54,161 nucleotides of DNA from Gemmatimonadota bacterium (GCA_003223415.1 QHUY01000007.1:1-54161), one strand, 5' to 3'; numbered from the stretch's first letter, positions 829 through 12,426 are shown. Made by a program: numbers and translations. The notes: generated by a model not told the origin, from the sequence alone.

Positions 829-922
829 GTCGTCTTTTTTGACAGCGCTCTGTATTGTATTCGCTAAGCGCTGGTACTATCTTCGCCAGCTGTTCGGAGG
901 CCATTTCGTCAAAAATATCGAC
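829..922. promoter_or_regulatory. Pair of GTC-N9-GAC boxes, candidate enhancer-binding-protein sites
   Basis: GTCGTCTTTTTTGAC at 829-843 (reverse complement GTCAAAAAAGACGAC) and GTCAAAAATATCGAC at 908-922 are related inverted copies in an AT-rich intergenic region upstream of a sigma-54 motif. Confidence 0.45.
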
Positions 923-945
923 AGTGACTAGGTGTTGCACGCATG

Positions 946-961
946 CGGCACAGGTCTTGCC
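946..961 (+). promoter_or_regulatory. Sigma-54 (-24/-12) promoter of the pilus operon
   Basis: CGGCACAGGTCTTGCC matches the TGGCAC-N5-TTGC consensus with exact GG-N10-GC spacing, about 100 nt upstream of the first pilin ATG. Confidence 0.7.
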
Positions 962-1057
962 CTAACGGTGTTGCGGCAGGCGGCGGAAGCGCAAGCAACC
1001 CCGCTAGTTGCTAGAGGTTACCAGCAGACACGATATAACCCGGAGAGGGAAGACCAG

Positions 1058-1558
1058 ATGAACACTGCTTCGAAGCTCACGCTCGCCGCGCTCGCGCTGG
1101 TAGTTGCTGGGGCCACCACGGCCCAGGCCCAGGGCGTCAACGGGAGCATCACGGCGACTGCCAGCGTGCAGGCGCCGATCACGGTCAGCGGCACGCGGGG
1201 CCTGGATTTCGGCAACGTATTCCCTGGCATCAGCAAGACTATCGCTGTGGGCGACCCCGGCGCCGGCCTCTTTAGCGTCACTGGTCAGGCGAGCACCCAG
1301 ATCACCTACGCCTTCACGCTGCCGGGCAACCTGACGTTCGGCCTTAACAACCTGCCGATCAGCCCGTGGACTGGTTACGTGAACACCACGAACTCCACCT
1401 CGGGTGGTTCGACCTTCCCTCCCTCGGCGGTGGCGGCCAACGCCACGCTGAGCGGCAGCGGCGCCCTCTTCTTCTTCGTCGGTGCCACAGTATCGCCGCC
1501 GAATAACCTGCCGGCAGGGTCGTATACCGGTACGGTGACGTTGACGGTGTCCTACTAA
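1058..1558 (+). CDS. Putative major pilin, DUF4402-like
   Basis: RBS GGAGAGGGA before ATG 1058. Signal peptide AQA|Q, LDFGxV motif, Gly/Thr/Ser-rich beta content, C-terminal GSYTGTVTLTVSY strand. Confidence 0.8.
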   Translation: MNTASKLTLAALALVVAGATTAQAQGVNGSITATASVQAPITVSGTRGLDFGNVFPGISKTIAVGDPGAGLFSVTGQASTQITYAFTLPGNLTFGLNNLPISPWTGYVNTTNSTSGGSTFPPSAVAANATLSGSGALFFFVGATVSPPNNLPAGSYTGTVTLTVSY

Positions 1559-1586
1559 TCGGACAACGATTAGGCGGTCTGCTGGC

Positions 1587-1627
1587 CTGCGCCGGCAGGG
1601 GTAGCTCGACCCCCCCTGCCGGCGCAG
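1587..1627 (+). terminator. Strong GC hairpin after the major pilin (attenuator or mRNA stabiliser)
   Basis: CTGCGCCGGCAGGGG...CCCCTGCCGGCGCAG forms a 15-bp perfect stem with no long U tail. Confidence 0.65.
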
Positions 1628-1651
1628 TCGCAAATAGGCCACTCATTGATC

Positions 1652-2119
1652 ATGCGCTTCCGTCCGCTCTCGCTCGCGCTCGTCCTGTTGGGCCCGGCAT
1701 CGCTCGCGGCCCAGGGCAAGCCCATCACGGTCCAGGGGGTGCGATCCCTGACGTTCGGAGCGGTGCTGCCGGGAGTGCCGCGCGTGATCTCGCGGACCGA
1801 TCCCGTGAACAGCGGGCAGTACGATATTACCGGCGCGAACAACAACCAGGTGCAGCTCAGCTTCACCCTTCCGAACGTCATGAACGGGCCGGCGGGCGCG
1901 ACGATGCCTATCGTCTTCGGCGGTAACGACGCTGGCTACTCTCAGTCTCAGGCGATCGGGAGCCAGGTGGCGTTCGATCCGAAGCAGTCGTTCCTGGCGA
2001 CCCTGAACAAGAATGGCCGGGGATCCGTCTTCGTGGGCGCGACGGCGCGGCCAACTCCCACGCAGCGGGCCGGCAGCTACACGGCGACGCTCACACTCAC
2101 GGTGGCCTACTTCCCATGA
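1652..2119 (+). CDS. Pilin-like subunit 2 (DUF4402-like), lacking an N-terminal extension
   Basis: Signal LAA|Q; LTFGAV, FTLP and GSYTATLTLTVAY motifs shared with 1058..1558. Confidence 0.8.
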   Translation: MRFRPLSLALVLLGPASLAAQGKPITVQGVRSLTFGAVLPGVPRVISRTDPVNSGQYDITGANNNQVQLSFTLPNVMNGPAGATMPIVFGGNDAGYSQSQAIGSQVAFDPKQSFLATLNKNGRGSVFVGATARPTPTQRAGSYTATLTLTVAYFP

Positions 2120-2949
2120 GCCGCGGGCTGCTGGTGCCCCTGGTGCTGCTCACCGTGGCAGCCGCCACGCTTGCGGCCCAAGGTGTGGTGATCGCTCCCC
2201 ACGCGGTTTACATCGACGCGCGGGTCCGTAGCGCCTCGGTCCTGCTCTACAATCCCAACCCGGAGCCGGCGGAAGTCACGATCTCGACCTTTTTCGGCTA
2301 CCCGGTGACCGATTCGCTGGGGCGTATCGTGCTGCGCACGGTGGACCGCCCCGACTCGACGGCACCGTCGGCCGCCGGGTGGATCCAGGCATTTCCCCGG
2401 CGGCTCACGGTCGTGCCGCTCGAGCGTCAGACCATCCGCCTGCTCGCCACACCGCCGCCAAGCCTGCCCGACGGCGAGTACTGGGCGCGCCTCGTGATCG
2501 CGGCCAAAGGCGGCCAAGTGCCCATCACGGGCGTGACCGACACGGCCAAAGTCAAGGTCGGCCTCACCCTCGAGGTGCGGACGATCATCGGGATGGCGTA
2601 CCGCAAGGGCGCGGTGCATACCGGGGTCGCGATCTCCCGCCTACGTGGTGCGGTGGTCGGTGATTCGCTCGAAGTCTGGAGCCGGATCGAGCGCCAGGGG
2701 AACGCCGCCTACGTCGGTACGATTCACGGCTCGCTGGTGGACTCCGCGGGTCGGGTGCGGGCCGAATTCCGCGCGCCGATCGGCGTCTACTACATGCTGG
2801 AACCTCGCTACGCGGCCGCCGTGGGCGCTCTGGCACCGGGCCGCTACTGGCTGAAGCTCGAGCTGACGACGGAGCGCGAGGACCTCGCGCCCGAGGTGAT
2901 CCTGCCGAGCGCGGCCGTCCGCGACTCGGTCGAACTGCGGATCCCGTGA
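2116..2949 (+). CDS. Putative periplasmic pilus chaperone (PapD-like)
   Basis: Signal peptide; VVIAPxxVYI...SVLLYN, FPRRLTVVPLERQTIRL, LPDGEYW and GNA motifs typical of fimbrial chaperones; ATGA-coupled to the pilin. Confidence 0.75.
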   Translation: MSRGLLVPLVLLTVAAATLAAQGVVIAPHAVYIDARVRSASVLLYNPNPEPAEVTISTFFGYPVTDSLGRIVLRTVDRPDSTAPSAAGWIQAFPRRLTVVPLERQTIRLLATPPPSLPDGEYWARLVIAAKGGQVPITGVTDTAKVKVGLTLEVRTIIGMAYRKGAVHTGVAISRLRGAVVGDSLEVWSRIERQGNAAYVGTIHGSLVDSAGRVRAEFRAPIGVYYMLEPRYAAAVGALAPGRYWLKLELTTEREDLAPEVILPSAAVRDSVELRIP

Positions 2950-3302
2950 TGCGCCGCGCGCTCGGTGTGGTCCTCTGGGCCGCGCTCGTCGCCATGCCCC
3001 GCCCGGCTCATGGGCAGAACAGCGGCGGGATCAGCGTCGACGCCGAGGTGATCGCTGTCGGGATGACCGTTACGAAACTGAGCGATCTCAACTTCGGACA
3101 GGTCACGAAGGGGATCGCGACTTCGGTGCTGCCGACCGACGCCGGCGCCGGCGAGTGGCAGGCGCTGGGGAACAAGAATGCGAACGTACAGATCACGTTC
3201 ACGCTGCCAACGCAGCTGACTAACATTCAGGCGTTGCCGGGCAGCACGATGCCGATCACCTTCAGCGCGACGTCAGCGCGCTGGCGCCGGGATGTCAACT
3301 AG
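2946..3302 (+). CDS. Pilin-like subunit 3, C-terminally truncated
   Basis: Signal AHG|Q, LNFGQV and FTLP motifs present, but the ORF stops after 118 aa without the GxYxxTxTLTVxY strand. Confidence 0.7.
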   Translation: MMRRALGVVLWAALVAMPRPAHGQNSGGISVDAEVIAVGMTVTKLSDLNFGQVTKGIATSVLPTDAGAGEWQALGNKNANVQITFTLPTQLTNIQALPGSTMPITFSATSARWRRDVN

Positions 3303-3307
3303 CCCCC

Positions 3308-5896
3308 ATGCTGCCCGGTCGGGGGGGGAGGGGGGGCACGCTCCTGTCGCTGCTCCCGCTCCAACTGTTGGCCGGCGCTCTGTCTGCCACGGTTCCGCGC
3401 CCTCCCGCCGACACCGAGCCCGAGCCGGTGATCCTCGAGCTGCAGCTCGGGCGGCTCGCCAGTCGCACCGTGCCGGCGTTCCGGGTCCGCAGCGAGGCGC
3501 TGGTACCGATGTCCGAGTTCCTGCAGCTCGCCGAGGTCGGCTACGTGCTCAGTCCGGAAGGGCGGATCGAGGCGTCGATCGATCCGGGCGGCCGCAAGCT
3601 CGTCATCGACGCGCGCCGTGACACGATGAGCTACGGGGACCACCGGGTGCGACTCGAACCGGAGTTCCGGCTGTTCCGCAACGGCGAGCTCTTCGTCGGC
3701 GCCGAGCGTCTAGGTGACCTGCTCGGCGTGCGGATCGTGGTGAGCTGGGCCGACCTCACCGTCGTCGTCACCGATGCGAGCGGCCTGCCGGTGGGCCGGC
3801 GGGCGCAGCGCGAGGCGGCGCGCGCGGCGTTTCGGCGCCGCTTCGCCGGGCCCCCGCCGGAGCTGGCCTTGGCCTTGGAGCGGCCGCGCTGGGATGGGAT
3901 GGTGGTCGATTACTCGTTTCTCGCGCCCAGCAGCGGCGTGGGCGCGGGCGGCGCGTACAGCGTCGCGGTCGGCGCCGACGCGTTCGGGGGCTCGCTCGAG
4001 CTAGGCGCGTCGAGCGTCGGCCGCCTCGACGCGGGCGTGGCGCGCATCGATGGCTCGTGGACCGGCGTCTGGCGGGACAGCCGTTGGCTCAGGCAGGTGC
4101 GCCTCGGTGACGGGCCGGTGTCGGGGCCGAACCCATGGATCCAGCGCGGGGTCTTGGCCACCAATGCCCCGTTCGTCCGCCCTTCCTTCGTCGGGACGAC
4201 GCGATACGACGGGCGTCTCGAGCCGGGGTGGGCGCTCGAGGCCTACCGCGGCTCGGAGCTCGTCGCCTTCGACTCCACCGACGCCCAGGGGCGCTTCGCC
4301 GTGGACCTGCCGGTGCGCTACGGGGAGAACCCCGTGGACTTCGTGGCGTACGGGCCGTTTGGACAGATCCGGCAGTTCAACCGCACCTACCGCGTGCTGA
4401 GCGAGCTGCTGCCGGCGCGGACGTTCGAGTACGGCGTGTCCGGCGGCGTCTGCCGGACGCCCCAGTGCGCAGCGACGACGAACCTCGACCTGCGCTACGG
4501 GATCTCCCCGCGCGCCACCGTGCAGGCGGGCTTCGACCGGTTCTGGCGGGACACCCTCCCCGACCTGTTTCATCCTTACGGCGCGGTGACCGTCGCGCCG
4601 ACGACGACGTGGGGTATCGAGCTCGACGGTGTCGGCGGCGCGCTCGCACGGGGCACCCTGCGCTACGAGCCGTCTCTCGACTTACGCCTGATGGCGTCGT
4701 ACACGGCGTTCGACCGCGGCACCGTCGCACCGATTCTCTCGCCGGCGGGACAGCGCTCCGACTGGCAGGTGCTCGGGTTCCTGCGCCCGATCCCGGGGCA
4801 GGGGTTCTTCTACCTCGAGAGCAGCCTGGAGCAGGCCGCGAGCGACGCGGGGACCATTACACGGGCCCGCCTCGGCGCGTCGCTGCAGGCGAACGAAGTG
4901 CGGGTGCTCCCCTACGTCCGTCTCGAGCGGGACGTGACGACGCGAGGGTTCATGGGCGTCAGCACGTCAGTGCTGCCGCGACCACAGTGGGGGCCGGTCT
5001 TCGGCAATGTGCTGCTGCGCTCCTCGATCGAGTGGCAGCAGGCGGGGCCCGCACTGGTCCGGCTCAATTCGTACGCACTCTCGGCCGCCCGGCCGATCGG
5101 GCCGGCAACGCGCCTGGAGGCGGGCGTGAGCTGGACCAGAGGAGGCCAGGGGGCGACGCTACAGCTGGCTTTGTCGAGCTACCTGCCGATGCTGCGCTCG
5201 TACACGACGGTGACCGCGCCTGCCGCGGCCCCCGCGTTCGCCACCCAGTACGTGCAGGGCTCGCTGCTGTGGGACCGGCGGGACGGCCGGCTCACCGGCG
5301 CGCCGGGGCCATCGCTGGAGCGGTCGGGGCTGACGGGACGGGTGTTCCTCGACGAGAACGGCAACGGTCGCTACGACCCGGGTGAGCCGACGCTGCCGCG
5401 CGTGCGCGTGCTGGTGGGCTCGAGCAGCGCGACCACCGACTCGAGCGGGGTGTTCCGCGTCTGGGACATCGTGCCGTTCGAGCCGATCCTGGTGACCGTG
5501 GATTCGCTCACCCTGGAGTCGCCGCTCCTCGTGCCGGTGTACGCCGCCGCGAGCATCGTGCCGGGCCCGAACCGGTTCCGCACGCTTGACATCCCGATCG
5601 TGCAGGCAGGCGTAGTCGAGGGACAGGTAGTGCGGGCCGAACAGGGAGGCGGGGTTGGCGGCGTCACGCTGCTGCTGACCGAGCGCAACAGCGCCGCGCA
5701 GCGCACGGTCACCACATTCAGCGACGGGGGCTTCTATACGCTCGGAGTGAAGCCTGGTGACTACCAGTTGACGGTGGCGCCGCAGGTGTTGGAGGCGCTG
5801 GGCGTGCGGGCTGTGCCGCTGCGCTTCACGCTGGCGCCCGGCGCGCAAGGCGTCGGCCGTTCCGGAATCGAGATCCGGCTCACCCCGACGCGGTAG
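3308..5896 (+). CDS. Usher-like outer-membrane assembly protein with C-terminal SdrD-B/carboxypeptidase-regulatory-like domains
   Basis: 862 aa; alternating beta-barrel strands; plug-like LEAYRGxELV...GRFxVDLPxxYGEN segment; GRVFLDENGNGRYDPGE; last gene of a pilin-chaperone operon. Confidence 0.7.
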   Translation: MLPGRGGRGGTLLSLLPLQLLAGALSATVPRPPADTEPEPVILELQLGRLASRTVPAFRVRSEALVPMSEFLQLAEVGYVLSPEGRIEASIDPGGRKLVIDARRDTMSYGDHRVRLEPEFRLFRNGELFVGAERLGDLLGVRIVVSWADLTVVVTDASGLPVGRRAQREAARAAFRRRFAGPPPELALALERPRWDGMVVDYSFLAPSSGVGAGGAYSVAVGADAFGGSLELGASSVGRLDAGVARIDGSWTGVWRDSRWLRQVRLGDGPVSGPNPWIQRGVLATNAPFVRPSFVGTTRYDGRLEPGWALEAYRGSELVAFDSTDAQGRFAVDLPVRYGENPVDFVAYGPFGQIRQFNRTYRVLSELLPARTFEYGVSGGVCRTPQCAATTNLDLRYGISPRATVQAGFDRFWRDTLPDLFHPYGAVTVAPTTTWGIELDGVGGALARGTLRYEPSLDLRLMASYTAFDRGTVAPILSPAGQRSDWQVLGFLRPIPGQGFFYLESSLEQAASDAGTITRARLGASLQANEVRVLPYVRLERDVTTRGFMGVSTSVLPRPQWGPVFGNVLLRSSIEWQQAGPALVRLNSYALSAARPIGPATRLEAGVSWTRGGQGATLQLALSSYLPMLRSYTTVTAPAAAPAFATQYVQGSLLWDRRDGRLTGAPGPSLERSGLTGRVFLDENGNGRYDPGEPTLPRVRVLVGSSSATTDSSGVFRVWDIVPFEPILVTVDSLTLESPLLVPVYAAASIVPGPNRFRTLDIPIVQAGVVEGQVVRAEQGGGVGGVTLLLTERNSAAQRTVTTFSDGGFYTLGVKPGDYQLTVAPQVLEALGVRAVPLRFTLAPGAQGVGRSGIEIRLTPTR

Positions 5897-5940: not shown

Positions 5941-7263
5941 ATGAATCGCCTCGGCTGGATTGACGCTCCAGGGCGGTCGCTCGCCCAATTCGCACGGCTC
6001 GCGGCGTTCGCCGAGGCCGCGCGCGCCGGCGGACTCACCCATACGCTCGTCTGCGGGATGGGTGGGTCGAGCCTCGCGCCGCGGGTCCTGGCCGCCACGT
6101 TCGAGCGCTCCAGCCTCGAGGTGCTCGACAGCACCGACCCCGCCGCGGTGCTCGCCGCCGAGCGTTGGCACGATCCCCACGAGACGTTGTATCTCATCGC
6201 CAGCAAATCCGGCACCACCGTGGAAACGATCGCGGCCTATCGCTACTTCGCGGCCCGCGCCCGGCCGGACCAGTTCGTCGCCGTCACGGATCCCGGCACG
6301 CCTCTCGAAACGCTCGCTCGCGAAGCCGGCTTCCGCGCCGTGTTCGAGCATCCCGCCGACGTCGGCGGCCGGTACGCGGCGTTGACGGTGGTCGGCATGC
6401 TGCCGGCGGCGCTCCTCGGGGTCGACGGCGCCACGTTGCTCGAGCGGGCGCTGGCATTGGACGTGGCGGCTGCCAAGGCGCTCGGCATCCGGCTCGCCGA
6501 GGCCGCTGTCGCGGGTCGGGACAAGCTGGCGCTCCGACCGCCGCCCCCCACGGCAAGCCTGGCGGGCTGGATCGAGCAGCTGGTAGCCGAGAGTACGGGA
6601 AAAGAAGGGCGGGGAGTGGTTCCCGTCGTCGGCTGCCCGGACACCGGCGGGCCCGACGTCCAGGCGATCAGCGAGTTCTCGGCGGATCCGCTGGACCTTG
6701 GCGCCGAGTTCCTGCGGTGGGAGTATGCGACGTGGGCGCTATGCGAGCGGCTGGGCGTGAACGCATTCGACCAGCCGGACGTCGAGGCCGCCAAGACGTT
6801 CGCCCGTGCGGCGCTGGAGCGGGCCCCGCGGGCCAGACCGGAGCGGCTGCCGACGCTCAGCCCCGAAGCGCTGCGTCGCGCCGCCAAGGCGCGCGACTAC
6901 TTCGCGATCCTCGCGTACCTGCCGCCCACGCCGGAGACTGAAGCGCGACTCGAGGCCGTGCGCGCGGCCTGGGGTCGGTCGCTGGCAGAGGGAGTGGGCC
7001 CTGTCACCACGCTAGGGTTCGGGCCGCGCTACCTGCACTCGACCGGTCAGCTCCACAAGGGCGGGCCGAACACCGGGCTGTTTCTGGTGATCACCGCCGC
7101 CGACGCCGTGGACGTCGACATCCCGGGGATGGGGCGAACGTTCGGGCAGCTCAAGCGGGCGCAGGCACTCGGCGACATCAAGGCGCTGCTCGCCAAGGGG
7201 CGGCGCGTCGCGCACGTGCACCTGGCACGCCCGGAAGACGTGACGGCGCTGGCCGCAGTCTAA
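5941..7263 (+). CDS. pgi: Glucose-6-phosphate isomerase (Tal/Pgi-type Pgi domain)
   Basis: GMGGSSL, SKSGTT, DVGGRY, EQLVAESTGK, FDQPDVE and LHSTGQLHKGG motifs. Confidence 0.85.
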   Translation: MNRLGWIDAPGRSLAQFARLAAFAEAARAGGLTHTLVCGMGGSSLAPRVLAATFERSSLEVLDSTDPAAVLAAERWHDPHETLYLIASKSGTTVETIAAYRYFAARARPDQFVAVTDPGTPLETLAREAGFRAVFEHPADVGGRYAALTVVGMLPAALLGVDGATLLERALALDVAAAKALGIRLAEAAVAGRDKLALRPPPPTASLAGWIEQLVAESTGKEGRGVVPVVGCPDTGGPDVQAISEFSADPLDLGAEFLRWEYATWALCERLGVNAFDQPDVEAAKTFARAALERAPRARPERLPTLSPEALRRAAKARDYFAILAYLPPTPETEARLEAVRAAWGRSLAEGVGPVTTLGFGPRYLHSTGQLHKGGPNTGLFLVITAADAVDVDIPGMGRTFGQLKRAQALGDIKALLAKGRRVAHVHLARPEDVTALAAV

Positions 7264-7319: not shown

Positions 7320-9662
7320 CTAATCGGGGTCGTGCACCAGCAGGGAGCGGCGCGGCGCGGGCATCCGCTCGCGCGGTCGCACGCTGGTCCAGATCTCCTC
7401 GTTCAACAACCGCTCATCGGCCCGGTCCGGTCCCGCGAGGTCGCGGTCCGGGATGCGCGAGCGGAACGCCACAGGGTTCCGCTCGTCGAGCGACCATGTG
7501 CTGGGGAGGGCACGGAACGGGGGGGAGGCCGTGTCCGGCCGCGTCGCGAACGCATTCCAGAGCGGGGTTGCGCCCGCGTCGTACTGCGATAGTGGCGGGA
7601 GACCGAGCAGCAGCCCGATGGTGCGCACCACCGCGCTGGTCGTGTAGAAGGTGCTGTCCACGGCGCCGCGGCGCGCCCAGGGCGAGGCCAGCAGCAGCAC
7701 GGAGCGGTGCGCGTCGATGTGGTCGGGTCCGTTCTGGGCGTCGTCCTCGAGCGCGAACAAGGCCAGAGCACCCCAGGCCGGCGAGCGCGACAGCCGCTCG
7801 ATCACGCGGCCGAGGCCGAGATCGTTGTCGGCCACCATGGCGCGCGGCGTCGGTTGGCCGGGGCGCCGCCCGAGGGTGTGGTCGCGCGGCAGGTACAGGA
7901 TGACGAGGTCGGGGAAGCGGCCCTGCCGGTCCCAGCTGTCCACCGAGTCGGCGAACATCCCGGCGCGCACGGTGTCGGGGATCGCGAGCACGAAGCTCGG
8001 ATACTGCAGGTCGGTGATTCCGCGCAGGCCAGGGAGATTGGTGTGGTAGACGGTCGCGGTCGATTCGCCCTCCACCATCTCGCCGAAGTTCACCACCCAC
8101 AGCCCCTTCTTGCGGGCCGCATCCCAGAGATAGGCGTCGCGAGGATTGGCGAGGTCTTCGCCGCTCGACACGTCCCATGTCCGCCGGTTGGAGTAGATGG
8201 CGGGCCAGGTCTTCTCGTTGTACTCCCCGGCGAAAGCGCGATCACTCCACTCATGGCCATCGGCGCTGACTTCCCCGTCCACGTAAAAGTTGTCGAACAG
8301 CACCCAGCGCCCAGCGATGGCGTGCGCGTTCGGCGTGACCGAGTCGTTGAAGAGGGCGAGTGAGCGATCACCGTTGCCTTTGGCCACGTCTCCGAACACC
8401 TGGTCGTACGTGCGGTTCTCGCGAATCACGTACACAACGTGTCGGACGGGCGGACGGGCGGACGGTCGGACCGAGGCCCGCAAGGCCGGATTCGTGTAGG
8501 GACTCAGTGCATACACTTCCCGTGTGTAACGGGCTAGGCGAACGTCATCGGGGACAGGGATGATCGAGATCGATCCCGTGATGACGTCCCCGATGTATTT
8601 GTGGTCGGCGTTGGGAGCCGAGCCGTTGCCTTTTCCGTTGGCGACGTAGAGGGTCTTGCCGTCGGCGCTCACCGCTACGGCCGTCGGATACCACCCAGCG
8701 GGGATCAGACCCGCCACGCGCATCGGGCCCGGGGCAGGGGCGAGGGAGACCACGGCCACGGCATTGTTGCCTGCCATAGCGACGTATAGCGTCCGGCCGT
8801 CGGGAGCGAGGGCGAGCCCGTTCGGGTCGCTGCCGACCGGCGCGCGGGAGGGGGGGCCCAGCGCTACCGTGAGCTGCTCGATCACCTTGCCGGTGGCGAG
8901 GTCAAGCCGCGCGACGCCGTTGGCGCCGGCGAGCGCCGCCCACAGCTCGCGGCCGCGCACCGCCAGCGCGGAAGGGTGGGGGCCGACGAACAGGGCGGTC
9001 GGGCGGTCAGGCGGTCGGGCGGTCAGGTCGATGACCGACACCGTCGAGTCGCCCCAATTGCTGACGTAGAGGTGCGAGGAATCCGCCACGACGGTGTACG
9101 GATGCTCGCCCACGGGGAACGCGCCGCGGCGCGCGAGCGTTGCCGCGTCGATCAGGTAGACGGAATCGCTGAGGTTGCCCACCGCGGCTACGAGGCCGCG
9201 CCCTGGCACCACGGCGATACCGCCCACGAAGAGCCTCACGGCGGAGTCCGCGAGCTGCATGGAATCGCGCGTCCAGCTCGAGTCGGCCCGCACGAAGCGG
9301 TGGACCGTGTTCATCTTCCCGCCGCTCACCCACAGCGTGTCGTGTCCGGCGGAACCCGAGCGCGCGAGGCCGACCCAGGCGGCGTGCTGCGGCAACGTCC
9401 ACACCACCCGACCGGCGGCAGGGTCGACGCCGCGCACACCGTTCGCCCCGTATCCGTTCGCCGGTACGGCCAGCTGCCCGTCGGAGAGAACGACCAGATT
9501 GAGCGGCAACGTGCCGACGGTGACCTGCCGGCCGGCGGGGTGAATGCGCCAACCCGACGGCAGGACGACCGTGCCGTCGGGGCGGGGGCCGGGGACGAGG
9601 CGGGTGGCGAGCAGGCCGATGCCGGCCGCGGCGGGAAGGGCGAGCCAGGAGTATTTGCGCAT
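7320..9662 (-). CDS. YVTN/YncE beta-propeller fused to a phosphoesterase (alkaline phosphatase superfamily)
   Basis: Propeller repeats (VGxHP, LYVxNxG) followed by VVYVIRENRTYDQVFGD, SADGHEW and EDDAQNGPDHIDAHRS. ATG 9662 is preferred over the ORF-track start. Confidence 0.85.
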   Translation of the reverse strand: MRKYSWLALPAAAGIGLLATRLVPGPRPDGTVVLPSGWRIHPAGRQVTVGTLPLNLVVLSDGQLAVPANGYGANGVRGVDPAAGRVVWTLPQHAAWVGLARSGSAGHDTLWVSGGKMNTVHRFVRADSSWTRDSMQLADSAVRLFVGGIAVVPGRGLVAAVGNLSDSVYLIDAATLARRGAFPVGEHPYTVVADSSHLYVSNWGDSTVSVIDLTARPPDRPTALFVGPHPSALAVRGRELWAALAGANGVARLDLATGKVIEQLTVALGPPSRAPVGSDPNGLALAPDGRTLYVAMAGNNAVAVVSLAPAPGPMRVAGLIPAGWYPTAVAVSADGKTLYVANGKGNGSAPNADHKYIGDVITGSISIIPVPDDVRLARYTREVYALSPYTNPALRASVRPSARPPVRHVVYVIRENRTYDQVFGDVAKGNGDRSLALFNDSVTPNAHAIAGRWVLFDNFYVDGEVSADGHEWSDRAFAGEYNEKTWPAIYSNRRTWDVSSGEDLANPRDAYLWDAARKKGLWVVNFGEMVEGESTATVYHTNLPGLRGITDLQYPSFVLAIPDTVRAGMFADSVDSWDRQGRFPDLVILYLPRDHTLGRRPGQPTPRAMVADNDLGLGRVIERLSRSPAWGALALFALEDDAQNGPDHIDAHRSVLLLASPWARRGAVDSTFYTTSAVVRTIGLLLGLPPLSQYDAGATPLWNAFATRPDTASPPFRALPSTWSLDERNPVAFRSRIPDRDLAGPDRADERLLNEEIWTSVRPRERMPAPRRSLLVHDPD
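8443..8471. repeat. In-frame octamer tandem repeat (CGGACGGG)n
   Basis: About 3.6 units encoding VRPSARPPVR at the linker between the propeller and phosphoesterase domains. Confidence 0.75.
8993..9024. repeat. In-frame octamer tandem repeat (RGGCGGTC)4
   Basis: Four units encoding TARPPDRPTA inside a propeller loop. Confidence 0.75.
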
Positions 9663-9693
9663 GCCCTCGAATATAGGCAGCCTTAGGCCCGGC

Positions 9694-12426
9694 ATGGGTG
9701 GATTCATCTTTCACCTCATCGCGCACACCCACTGGGACCGCGAATGGTACCTGCCGCGCGCTTCATTCCACGCGCGGCTCGTGCCGGTGCTCGACGATTT
9801 GATCGCGCGACTCCACGCCGATCCCGGGTACCGCAGCTTCCTGCTCGACGGCCAGACCATCCTCCTCGAGGACTACCTGCAGGCGCGCCCCGACCGCGAC
9901 GCGGAGGTCAAAGCTCTCGTCAAGACGGGGCGACTCCAGGTCGGGCCGTGGTACGTGCTCGCGGACGAGCTCATCCCCTCGGGGGAGTCGTTGATCCGCA
10001 ACCTCCTCCTCGGTGCCGCCGACGCCGAGCGGCTGGGCGGGCGGCTGGACGTGCTGTACTCGCCCGACGCGTTCGGCCACCCGGCGGCCTGGCCTGAACT
10101 CGCGCGTGAGTTCGGAATCCGGTATGGGGTGCTGTGGCGGGGCCGGGGTGGTGAGCCCGGCGAGGAGCGCGATCTGTTCCGCTGGGCTGGCGCGGCCGGC
10201 CGGGAGGTGCTCGTCTGGCACCTGCCGCCGCAGGGGTACGAGATCGGCGCGGCGCTCCCAGCCGCGCGCGAGCGTCTGAGCGAAGCGTGGCCGCGCGTGC
10301 GCGACGCGCTGCTGGGACGCGCGCAGGGCAAGCATGTCCCGGTGTTCATCGGGGCCGACCACCATGCCGCGCATCCCGATCTGTCCCATCTGCGTGACCA
10401 GCTGGCGGCGCTCGAACCCGAGAACGCAGTGCGCATCTCGCGGCTCGATGAATTCTTCCAGGCGGCGGCCGCTGAGCCCGGGGGCGCCGGGGGAGGGGGG
10501 GGGGGAACGGGGCGGAAGGGGGCCACGGTCCCGGTCCACGCGGGTGAGCTCCGGTGGTCCTACCGCTACACCTGGACGCTGCAAGGCGTGCACGGCACGC
10601 GGCTGCCGCTCAAGCGGCGGCACGCCCTGCTGGAGCTGTGGCTCGAGCGATACGCGGAGCCGCTCGCCACCCTGGCGCGTCGGCACGGCGTCAGCGGGCG
10701 CGACCGACGGCCTTTGCTCGAGCTCGCCTGGCGGACGCTGGTCCGATGCCAATTCCATGATGCGATCGCCGGCTGCACGAGCGACGAGGTGGCCGCGGCG
10801 GTCGAGGCTCGGTTCATCGACGTCGAGGCGTACGCGCGCGAGATCGTGCGAGGCGCGCTGCAGGAGCTCGTGGGGTACGATCCCGACGTGGCGCGGGAAC
10901 GCCCCGCGGCAGCGGGGGGTGGGGGCAGGGGGGGGAGGGAAGGAGGAGGCAGGCTCGCGCTGTGGAACCCCGCGGCACGGCCGCGGGGCGGCGTGGTGAT
11001 CGCCGACGTGTCGTTTTTTCGGCGCGACATCCTCGTGGGTCCGCCTGGCGATCGCAGGCCCCGAGTCGGAGCAGGATACCAGCCGTTCGCCCTGCGGACC
11101 CCGGACGGCCGAGCGGTGCCGGTGCAGCTGCTCGACCGCCGGATGGGGCTGGAGCGGCGCGACGCCGCGCGGCACTATCCGGATCAGGACGAGGTAGACC
11201 AGGTCCGGATCGCGTTCCGGGCGCCGAGCGTAGTGGGTCTAGGGTTCGGGATGCTGGACGTGGGGGAGGTGGTCCCCGGGACCCCTGCATCGACCGGAGG
11301 CGCCGGGGTGCGCGGGCGGACGCTGGTGAATCGGTTCGTCGAAGTGACGCTCGAGCCGGCGGGTGCGCTCGCGTTGCACGACCGCCGCACCGGTGAGCGC
11401 TTCTTCGACCTGCTGCGGCTCGAGGACGGCGGGGATGCCGGGGACACGTACACCTACTGCCCGCCGGCGCGCGACCGAGTCGTGCGCAGGACAGGGCAGG
11501 GGCGGATTCACGTCCGGCGCCTCGCGCCGGGGCCGCTGGTCGCCGCGCTCGAGGCGCGCTGGAGCATGAAGACCGTCGCCGCGCGGCTCGTGGTGATGCT
11601 GTACGCCGACCACCCCGTGGTGCGGTGCCTGCTCGAGGTCGACAATCGCGCGCCCGACCACCGCCTCCGGGCCCGGCTCCCGACGGCGCTCGGCGGAGGG
11701 AGCCCGGCGCTAGCGGGCGCGGCCTTCGGGACGGTGCGCCGCCCGCCGGTGAGCGTCGATCCGGCCGACTTCCCCCTCGAGACGCCGGTCGCGACGGCGC
11801 CGGCGCATCGGTTCGTGGCGGTCGCCCAGGGGCGACGCGGACTGGCGTTGCTCGCGCCGGGGTTCTTCGAGTATGAGTGGACGTCAGGCGGCGACCTGGT
11901 CGTCACACTGCTGCGGGCGGTAGGCGAGCTCTCGCGCGGGGACTTGCCGACGCGGCCAGGCCACGCAGGCTGGCCTACCTCGACGCCGCAGGCGCAATGC
12001 CTTGGCGGCCACCGCATCGAGCTCGGGCTGGTGACGGTTCAGGAAGAGGAGCTCGTGCACGGGCATGTCGTGCTGGCGCACTGGGAGGACGCGTTCGTCC
12101 CGGTGAGCGGCCACTGGATCCGGGACGCCGGGCCGCTGACGCCGGCGCCGGTGGACATCGCGCTCGAAGGCGCGGGACTCATGCTGTCGGCGGTGAAGCC
12201 GGCGCACGCAGGGGGCTCGGGAGCGGGGGGGGGGCTCGTGCTGCGGTGCTACAACGCGACGGACGGAAAGGCGGCGGGCGCCTGGCGCTTCGGCGAGGGT
12301 GTGAAGAGCGCCCATCGCGTGCGCGCGGACGAGCGCGACTCGGTCGCCCTGGTGCTGGAGAACCGCGGCCGCACGGTGCGGTTCGTGGCGGAGCCAAGAG
12401 AAATCGTGACGATTCTGGTGACGTGA
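9694..12426 (+). CDS. GH38 alpha-mannosidase family protein
   Basis: HTHWDREWY, FLLDGQ, GPWYVLADE, DAFGH and QFHDAIAGC motifs. ATG 9694 (MGGFIFHL) is the likely start. Confidence 0.9.
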   Translation: MGGFIFHLIAHTHWDREWYLPRASFHARLVPVLDDLIARLHADPGYRSFLLDGQTILLEDYLQARPDRDAEVKALVKTGRLQVGPWYVLADELIPSGESLIRNLLLGAADAERLGGRLDVLYSPDAFGHPAAWPELAREFGIRYGVLWRGRGGEPGEERDLFRWAGAAGREVLVWHLPPQGYEIGAALPAARERLSEAWPRVRDALLGRAQGKHVPVFIGADHHAAHPDLSHLRDQLAALEPENAVRISRLDEFFQAAAAEPGGAGGGGGGTGRKGATVPVHAGELRWSYRYTWTLQGVHGTRLPLKRRHALLELWLERYAEPLATLARRHGVSGRDRRPLLELAWRTLVRCQFHDAIAGCTSDEVAAAVEARFIDVEAYAREIVRGALQELVGYDPDVARERPAAAGGGGRGGREGGGRLALWNPAARPRGGVVIADVSFFRRDILVGPPGDRRPRVGAGYQPFALRTPDGRAVPVQLLDRRMGLERRDAARHYPDQDEVDQVRIAFRAPSVVGLGFGMLDVGEVVPGTPASTGGAGVRGRTLVNRFVEVTLEPAGALALHDRRTGERFFDLLRLEDGGDAGDTYTYCPPARDRVVRRTGQGRIHVRRLAPGPLVAALEARWSMKTVAARLVVMLYADHPVVRCLLEVDNRAPDHRLRARLPTALGGGSPALAGAAFGTVRRPPVSVDPADFPLETPVATAPAHRFVAVAQGRRGLALLAPGFFEYEWTSGGDLVVTLLRAVGELSRGDLPTRPGHAGWPTSTPQAQCLGGHRIELGLVTVQEEELVHGHVVLAHWEDAFVPVSGHWIRDAGPLTPAPVDIALEGAGLMLSAVKPAHAGGSGAGGGLVLRCYNATDGKAAGAWRFGEGVKSAHRVRADERDSVALVLENRGRTVRFVAEPREIVTILVT

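Follow-up and report, generated by a model that had tools for sequence, protein, structure and literature searches.

A probable chaperone-usher-type operon for cysteine-free DUF4402 pilins in a Gemmatimonadota genome

A DNA stretch of 54,161 nucleotides from a Gemmatimonadota bacterium (GCA_003223415.1, QHUY01000007.1:1-54161), in the following called the window, carries an operon of five tightly packed genes that very probably encodes a chaperone-usher-type machine assembling a surface fibre from DUF4402 pilins. Chaperone-usher pili have been described mainly from proteobacterial pathogens. All five genes, coding for three pilin paralogues (pil1, pil2 and pil3), a 277-aa chaperone and an 862-aa usher-type protein, lie on the + strand, and together with a promoter element they occupy positions 946-5896. 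The junctions pil2/chaperone and chaperone/pil3 are overlaps of 4 nt. The host genome (3.5 Mb, 97.5% complete) contains the operon in one copy, and the window forms the beginning of its contig C210. Signal peptides were assigned to all five products by inspection. A preliminary description, made from the sequence of the window, had proposed a Cys-free chaperone-usher-like operon, and this proposal holds: pil1, pil2, pil3 and the chaperone contain no cysteine (the 862-aa protein contains two), and DUF4402 is found in pil1 and pil2. The system is a deeply divergent variant of the chaperone-usher pathway that is widespread and undescribed in the literature searched, and not a categorically new one.

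The predicted fold of the 862-aa protein supports its assignment as an usher-type barrel. Its AlphaFold2 (AF2) model, built from 74 relatives with 28-84% identity, reached a predicted local distance difference test score (pLDDT) of 93.7 and a predicted template-modelling score of 0.83. The model consists of an N-terminal domain (~39-155), a helix (161-178), a barrel with an internal insert (~196-656) and two C-terminal domains, one SdrD-B-like (~661-760) and one CarboxypepD_reg-like (~762-860). Foldseek ranked FimD first (3rfz_B, E 1e-27), followed by PapC (7lhg_C, E 2.3e-21), with FimD and PapC entries ranging to E 1e-10. With VIA, all of the top 15 rows were FimD or PapC (Z 18.3-21.8, model residues 184-861). 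The isolated FimD pore 3ohn_A was aligned over 354 residues with Z 21.4 and a root-mean-square deviation (rmsd) of 4.2 Å (model residues 197-653), compared with Z <= 16.9 for other barrels, namely TonB-dependent receptors and porins. As the alignments to full-length ushers reach residue ~858, the two C-terminal β-sandwich domains occupy the positions of the usher C-terminal domains CTD1 and CTD2.

The SdrD-B/carboxypeptidase-regulatory-like C-terminus that had been read from the sequence was recovered in part by Pfam, in which CarboxypepD_reg passed its cut-off (770-829, 36 bits; cut-off 32.3) and SdrD_B remained below it (27.5 bits; cut-off 29.7). A profile of the usher compared with the PDB matched SdrD B domains at 675-718 (E 1.4e-7) and NOMO/CarboxypepD_reg at 762-843 (E 4.1e-10). 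Clusters of PF00577 ushers were among the structural neighbours of the protein in the Atlas (TM 0.52-0.59), and its orthologue in genome G125 gave a weak, sub-threshold PF00577 match of 19.1 bits. The operon encodes only two cysteines, C382 and C387 of the usher (window 4451-4468), which belong to a CxxxxC turn connecting two strands of the barrel. Across the 74 relatives C382 never varies and C387 hardly ever does, and this sequence pattern may reflect a disulphide within the loop. The start codon and signal peptide of the usher were placed by inspection only; the gene begins in a G-run (3308-3345, MLPGRGGRGGT...), and the 83%-identical homologue P0002 does not have the residues GRGGT.

The 277-aa protein is supported as a PapD-like chaperone by its modelled fold, as had been proposed. 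The AF2 model, obtained from an alignment of 57 relatives (pLDDT 83.4), is all-β and composed of two domains, of which the first (~24-165) contains a long F1-G1 hairpin (strands 120-135 and 150-164) and the second spans ~169-277. The best matches of Foldseek against the PDB were CfaA, CupB2, CsuC, SafB, YadV, EcpB, FimC, PapD and Caf1M, with E values from 5e-8 to 3e-6. VIA gave Z scores of 11.4-12.6 to chaperone-usher chaperones over residues 27-274, thus including both domains; the values were highest for CupB2 (Z 12.6, 186 residues aligned, rmsd 4.9) and CsuC (Z 12.3, 167 residues aligned, rmsd 3.7). A chaperone homologue from Polaromonas, which is related to the window chaperone with a BLASTP E value of 2e-4, was recognised by PapD_N with 25.3 bits (cut-off 23), and 'P pilus assembly chaperone PapD' is the name that IMG gives to some close homologues.

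The chaperone (22-277) and pil1 (26-166) were modelled as a pair, using alignments made in this work. The complex scores were 0.71, 0.69 and 0.71, with 0.00 for the best control; they express how confident the model is in itself, and resemblance to solved complexes of chaperone and subunit may lie behind them. In the calibration, 58 of 80 solved complexes and 2 of 110 mismatched pairs attained the score mark, rates that apply only roughly here since own alignments were used. Contacts agreed between runs to at least 85%, and the pLDDT of the partner was at least 84. The best-defined contacts were chaperone/pilin 151/159, 153/161, 155/163 and 157/165. Since both members of these pairs rise together, the last strand of chaperone domain 1 runs parallel to the C-terminal strand of the pilin. 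Hydrophobic residues alternate along this chaperone strand within 146-158 (among them V146, V148, L150, L152 and V154). In the model, chaperone residues ~143-159 lie alongside pilin residues 151-166, the first strand of the chaperone (22-30) runs along the first strand of the pilin, and pilin residues 42-43 are touched by chaperone residues 25 (first strand) and 156. According to the available part of one source, such an arrangement of strands defines donor-strand complementation (PMC13721041). Donor-strand complementation, with the chaperone G1 strand parallel to the pilin F strand, is therefore predicted in silico, and the complex score supports chaperone-pilin binding without demonstrating it. 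This geometry supports the preliminary description, which had named a predicted pilin-chaperone complex as a check of donor-strand complementation.

In Pfam searches, pil1 and pil2 matched DUF4402 (PF14352) with 29.0 and 30.0 bits, respectively (gathering cut-off 25.2). The alignment agreed with the earlier observation that all three paralogues share LxFGxV and FTLP motifs and that two of them have a common C-terminal motif, which reads GSYTGTVTLTVSY in pil1 and GSYTATLTLTVAY in pil2. Behind the signal peptide, pil1 has an N-terminal extension (~29-39) with alternating small or hydrophobic residues (I31, A33, A35 and V37). T34, A35 and V37, which precede the first core strand, are invariant in the aligned pil1 orthologues, and pil3 carries an N-terminal stretch similar to that of pil1. 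By contrast, pil2 and its orthologues begin directly at the core strand and do not possess the extension of ~13 residues seen in pil1 and pil3. Without such a donor extension pil2 could only enter first, which makes it a candidate for the distal subunit and pil1 for the polymer. Pil1 is also the first gene behind the promoter element, and the hairpin comes directly after it. From these features we infer that pil1 is the likely major pilin, pil2 the distal or first subunit and pil3 an optional minor subunit. Cysteine is absent from 13 of 16 pil1-type genes of related loci, the other three (L038, L040 and L043) carrying two each. SCPU (PF05229) did not match any of the window proteins at E <= 1 in Pfam, and hhalign aligned the DUF4402 profile of pil1 with three SCPU pilins over the last 16 columns only (probability 1.9%). 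LDFG and GxY..T.T motifs occur in both DUF4402 and SCPU pilins and may point to a distant kinship.

The -24/-12 motif and the hairpin given in the preliminary description are both conserved, although the motif is not significant in the window when taken alone. The element CGGCACAGGTCTTGCC, which has GG and GC doublets 10 nt apart, deviates by two mismatches from TGGCAC-N5-TTGCW, and with eight two-mismatch matches in the window versus 17.2 expected it is by itself not above chance. Upstream regions were compared for the window and for 16 loci possessing a pil1-type gene. In 14 of these 17 regions a motif with a score of at least 9 of 11 was found 73-131 nt before the pil1 start, two regions had a score of 8, and one had no motif; as the loci come from related genomes, this conservation amounts to footprinting and not to a statistical test. 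The background of such motifs was 0.085 per kb per strand (206,522 bases, 20 loci), and all four motifs with a score of 10 in the 20 loci were those upstream of pil1. The host genome contains rpoN and 22 Sigma54_activat matches. The spacer of 87 nt between pil1 and pil2 has a folding energy of -47.8 kcal/mol (z -4.1). A long GC stem occurs in 14 of 16 pil1-pil2 spacers, and the stem sequences differ between lineages. The stem-loop is likely to act as a partial terminator or as an mRNA stabiliser that raises the dose of pil1.

The distribution within the phylum was determined in a sample of 301 Gemmatimonadota genomes. The 862-aa protein had matches in 101 of them at E <= 1e-3 and in 72 at E <= 1e-40, the weaker matches spanning its C-terminal domains only. 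PF00577 Usher was detected in two of the 301 genomes (above the cut-off in one) and SCPU in one. The genome with SCPU and the one with PF00577 above the cut-off are the same, G248 (C1:3706771-3711270; L050, L052 and L133-L135); it has three SCPU matches around a PF00577 usher and is the sole genome of the sample with a conventional archaic-type system, so that both types of system occur in the phylum. A HMMER search of 1.84 billion representatives yielded 3892 relatives of the usher at E <= 1e-3, of which 625 reached E <= 1e-30. Synteny, a survey of which the preliminary description had suggested, was examined in 20 loci that were hand-picked from the matches of the 862-aa protein across the range of usher identity: all 20 have pilin genes upstream of the usher gene, and 19 have a chaperone gene. 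Pilin, chaperone and usher genes retain their order while usher identity falls from 60% to ~30%.

Two of the related ushers have unusual reading frames. At L044 in G126 (2506-5379, - strand), the usher frame runs into a DUF4402-like domain (~809-956) that replaces the last C-terminal domain; no chaperone was found at this locus with phmmer, and the open frame may represent an usher-pilin fusion. The usher orthologue at G025:C41:26734-29283 (- strand) contains one in-frame TAG, which could mark a pseudogene or be due to an error in sequencing.

Beyond the phylum, the range rests on the Atlas, two plasmid records and one record from Krumholzibacteria. Atlas clusters of the same architecture are commonest in Pseudomonadota, Fusobacteriota, Bacteroidota and Cyanobacteriota, and one cluster member stems from Candidatus Krumholzibacteria. 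The same operon type is found on plasmid 2 of Polaromonas sp. JS666 (NC_007950.1) and on pMC4 of Sphingopyxis indica (NZ_CP076395.1). The notion of a system special to a non-proteobacterial host therefore had to be given up, as the same gene set is present on these two plasmids.

The idea of three intact pilins did not hold either, as pil3 is a deletion allele in this genome. Compared with the window, contig L053 is 99.6-99.9% identical over 4475 bases and contains 168 extra bases (L053 2784-2951). The deletion is in frame and the codon of N118 is directly followed by the stop codon (window 3299-3302), which explains why pil3 lacks the C-terminal motif. All six pil3 orthologues in related genomes are 170-175 aa long and end with the usual motif. 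P0390, which is 99% identical to the pil3 of the window, has 173 aa and carries PF14352 according to precomputed annotation; the truncated pil3 itself gave no Pfam match, DUF4402 included. Alleles were surveyed in Logan contigs from four soil runs of four studies (X1-X4), which were compared with L053. The 168-nt joint was found in X1 and X2 (two of four runs; short sides of 29 and 33 letters), either of which may be the sample behind the assembly of the window. The full form of pil3 was found in X3, X4 and one short X1 contig (three of four runs). Among the 20 runs listed, none was from RNA. A pil3 orthologue is present in only six of 20 related loci, and pil3 thus seems dispensable. A second joint inside pil3, skipping 291 nt (L053 2458-2750), was seen in X2 and X3 contigs of low depth (2.8 and 3.97; side 29); it could represent a further in-frame deletion or arise from assembly.

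Several observations weigh against the reading of this operon as a chaperone-usher system, beside the bounds on the complex score given above. The TM-scores of the chaperone model to chaperone-usher chaperones are just 0.35-0.57. Single Ig domains of GH2 glycosidases tie with these chaperones (Z 12.5 over ~98 residues, domain 2 only), and so does the Gram-positive WxLIP (9i25_C, Foldseek E 9e-8, Z 12.4). Due to these ties Z alone is not decisive, and it is the coverage of two domains that counts. The VIA alignments of the usher begin at 184-198 and leave the predicted folded domain 39-155 uncovered. PF00577 Usher had no match at E <= 1 among the window proteins and none in the whole host genome, and PapD_N and PapD_C had none to the window chaperone at E <= 1. 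Sequence searches of the PDB with single proteins and with profiles of usher, chaperone and pil1 returned no usher, chaperone or pilin; the matches were limited to the usher C-terminus (domains of SdrD, NOMO and Uro-adherence factor A). A NCBIfam search of the window proteins gave nothing meaningful. The operon contains no gene for a two-domain tip adhesin, and its pil3 is 56 codons short at the 3' end, where the C-terminal strand would be encoded. No sigma-54 activator (bacterial enhancer-binding protein) is encoded beside the operon, as all 22 Sigma54_activat matches of the genome lie elsewhere. In sum, the chaperone-usher features of the two proteins are present at the level of the fold and absent at the level of sequence models (PapD_N and PF00577). 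Of the families named in the preliminary description, DUF4402 was confirmed in pil1 and pil2, no match was obtained for the chaperone and usher models, and SdrD_B stayed sub-threshold. The analysis revealed neither self-contained Ig folds in place of pilins, nor an 862-aa protein other than an usher-type barrel, nor an already characterised family to which the operon belongs.

Instead of building a donor-strand-exchanged filament, the machine could bring the DUF4402 proteins to the surface as single molecules or in the form of a loose coat or a layer resembling a capsule. The modelled complex covers the chaperone-pilin pair, and donor-strand exchange is suggested by the sequence pattern of the pilins; besides the missing tip adhesin gene, all pilin genes encode proteins of at most 176 aa, and in the accessible text of PMC13721041 the chaperone-usher pair of Caf1 is described as building a capsule of thin fibrils. 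This capsule, however, itself consists of donor-strand-linked fibres. Moreover, the pil1 orthologues keep the N-terminal stretch with its three invariant residues as a donor strand would need it, whereas it is specifically pil2 that does not have it, and a layer of unlinked proteins appears improbable. Still less credit is given to the idea that the 862-aa protein is a transporter or porin with carboxypeptidase-regulatory-like domains, functionally unrelated to its neighbours, and the 277-aa protein a generic periplasmic protein with Ig domains. Its database name, 'carboxypeptidase regulatory-like domain-containing protein', the alignment of TonB-dependent receptors and porins to the barrel at Z 14-17 and the tie of the GH2 Ig domains in Z would be in agreement with it. 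But ushers outrank other barrels (Z 18-22 versus <= 16.9) in alignments that continue through the C-terminal domains to ~858, the order of genes persists over the whole identity range surveyed and on two proteobacterial plasmids, and the chaperone-pilin interface passes its controls. Such an unrelated pair of proteins is considered very unlikely.

The deletion in pil3 could further be taken as the mark of a decaying locus that has lost its function as a whole. The deletion allele recurs in two of the four soil runs, and G068, a genome of the same genus, is without a full-length usher match (best E 1.9e-5). Nonetheless, the other four genes have intact open frames and encode conserved residues, and pil3, of which most of the related loci have no orthologue, looks dispensable; a mere remnant is hardly credible. 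A functional chaperone-usher-type system remains the preferred interpretation.

Among known systems, the archaic (sigma) pili Csu of Acinetobacter baumannii and CupE of Pseudomonas aeruginosa are similar in their layout, since their operons are likewise small and combine a single chaperone and a single usher with single-domain pilins, of which one is major and several are minor. The fold of the archaic CsuC is a match to the window chaperone, and both systems occur outside enterobacteria. As far as the available part of one article goes, the archaic class has been reported in proteobacteria, Cyanobacteria and Deinococcus-Thermus, and its pilins are SCPU domains with an invariant pair of cysteines that form a disulphide (PMC4654587). 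Neither of these two archaic features, the SCPU domain and the disulphide, is found in the window, where the pilins are DUF4402 proteins with no cysteine. Moreover, the window system has no two-domain tip adhesin, and its usher is without PF00577 and bears C-terminal SdrD-B and CarboxypepD_reg signatures.

The classical systems FimC/FimD and PapD/PapC and the FGL system Caf1M/Caf1A share with the operon a two-domain chaperone, a plugged usher barrel and C-terminal usher domains, and the predicted donor-strand geometry with G1 parallel to F is theirs as well. The long F1-G1 hairpin with its contact zone 143-159 presumably recalls the long-loop (FGL) chaperones. The operon differs from both in the low structure-based identity (~10-15%), the lack of Pfam matches, the sigma-54 promoter and the soil Gemmatimonadota host. 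The operons of Polaromonas and Sphingopyxis have the same architecture; beside one or two DUF4402 genes they encode a chaperone (274-287 aa) and a protein of ~895 aa with an SdrD_B/CarboxypepD_reg C-terminus. In its N-terminal part and at its C-terminus, the plasmid usher is homologous to that of the window (BLASTP 4e-19 and 1e-23), yet identity to the window proteins is just 22-30%. The annotation of these loci is automatic only, with the chaperones entered in RefSeq as 'fimbria/pilus periplasmic chaperone' or 'molecular chaperone' and the large protein not recognised as an usher. No experimental work on either locus was found in the literature searched. The two-domain Ig-like fold of WxLIP from the Gram-positive WxL systems matches the chaperone model as well as chaperone-usher chaperones do, but these systems have no outer-membrane usher, use different subunits (WxL proteins) and belong to monoderm hosts. 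A Gram-positive pilus assembled via chaperone-guided donor-strand exchange is announced in the title of a 2026 preprint (10.64898/2026.10.17.759780).

The preliminary description had ranked the operon as a candidate for an undescribed system, which is in agreement with the literature searched. Neither DUF4402 nor PF14352 turned up in any paper there, subscription journals and supplements being outside the search. Chaperone-usher combined with Gemmatimonadota gave passing mentions only, and in combination with sigma-54 or broader terms nothing on this type was retrieved.

Transcription would start from the sigma-54 promoter, and the conserved stem-loop after pil1 would keep this pilin in excess, with the genes downstream being translationally coupled. 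All five products would be exported by means of their putative signal peptides. In the periplasm, the chaperone is predicted to cap each pilin by donor-strand complementation. The 862-aa protein would serve as the usher in the outer membrane, which the fold suggests to be a plugged barrel with two C-terminal β-sandwich domains. During polymerisation, the N-terminal extension of an incoming pil1 would replace the chaperone strand, as its residue pattern suggests. Pil2 would enter first and end up distally, and pil3, which is a deletion allele in the window and has no orthologue in most related loci, would be an optional minor subunit.

With little more than even confidence, the system may be regarded as a separate, deeply branching chaperone-usher class that belongs to none of the six clades defined on the basis of PF00577 ushers. 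Such a class would be characterised by disulphide-free DUF4402 subunits, a long donor hairpin of the chaperone, SdrD-B-like (possibly Ca-binding) and transthyretin-like domains of the usher, which replace the usual C-terminal ones, and, in Gemmatimonadota, sigma-54 control. Its members would be frequent among soil bacteria from several phyla. It would have been overlooked because the family models miss its usher. The findings would widen the reach of a pathway whose pili are known mainly from proteobacterial pathogens. The family comprises 625 representative clusters (E <= 1e-30) and, within the phylum sample, 72 genomes versus a single one with PF00577 above the cut-off; recognising this family as ushers would bring to light many fibre systems of soil bacteria that lack annotation. 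The operon also offers a natural test case for donor-strand assembly without a pilin disulphide, and Polaromonas sp. JS666 is a cultivable host that carries this operon type on a plasmid.

Table 1. Features of the operon, with positions counted from the first letter of the window.
Feature	Position	Strand	Basis or remark
-24/-12 element, sigma-54 type (CGGCAC-N5-TTGCC)	946..961	+	~97-112 nt upstream of the pil1 start codon
pil1, likely major pilin, 166 aa, DUF4402, no Cys	1058..1558	+	Pfam, alignment, predicted complex
GC-rich stem-loop in the pil1-pil2 spacer, stem ~17 bp, no U-tract	1585..1631	+	folding energy, conservation
pil2, 157 aa, DUF4402 pilin, candidate first-in (tip) subunit	1646..2119	+	Pfam, N-termini of orthologues
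Periplasmic two-domain Ig-like chaperone, 277 aa	2116..2949	+	AF2 model, Foldseek, VIA, predicted complex
pil3, 118 aa, deletion allele of a 173-aa DUF4402 pilin	2946..3302	+	comparison with a near-identical contig
Usher-type outer-membrane protein, 862 aa	3308..5896	+	AF2 model, Foldseek, VIA, Pfam, profile vs PDB

Upstream of the operon and divergent from it, an FHA-domain gene (1-216, - strand) is cut by the end of the contig. It was considered as the sigma-54 activator and rejected, as its relatives encode an FHA-FHA-trypsin protease. An FHA homologue adjoins the operon in only three of the 20 loci, where it is located upstream and in the same direction as the operon. Downstream, a PGI-like protein is encoded at 5941-7263 (+ strand), with no evident tie to the pilus operon. 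It is followed at 7320-9707 (- strand) by the gene of a 795-aa protein with β-propeller (Lactonase) and phosphoesterase-family matches, likewise without an evident link to the pilus.

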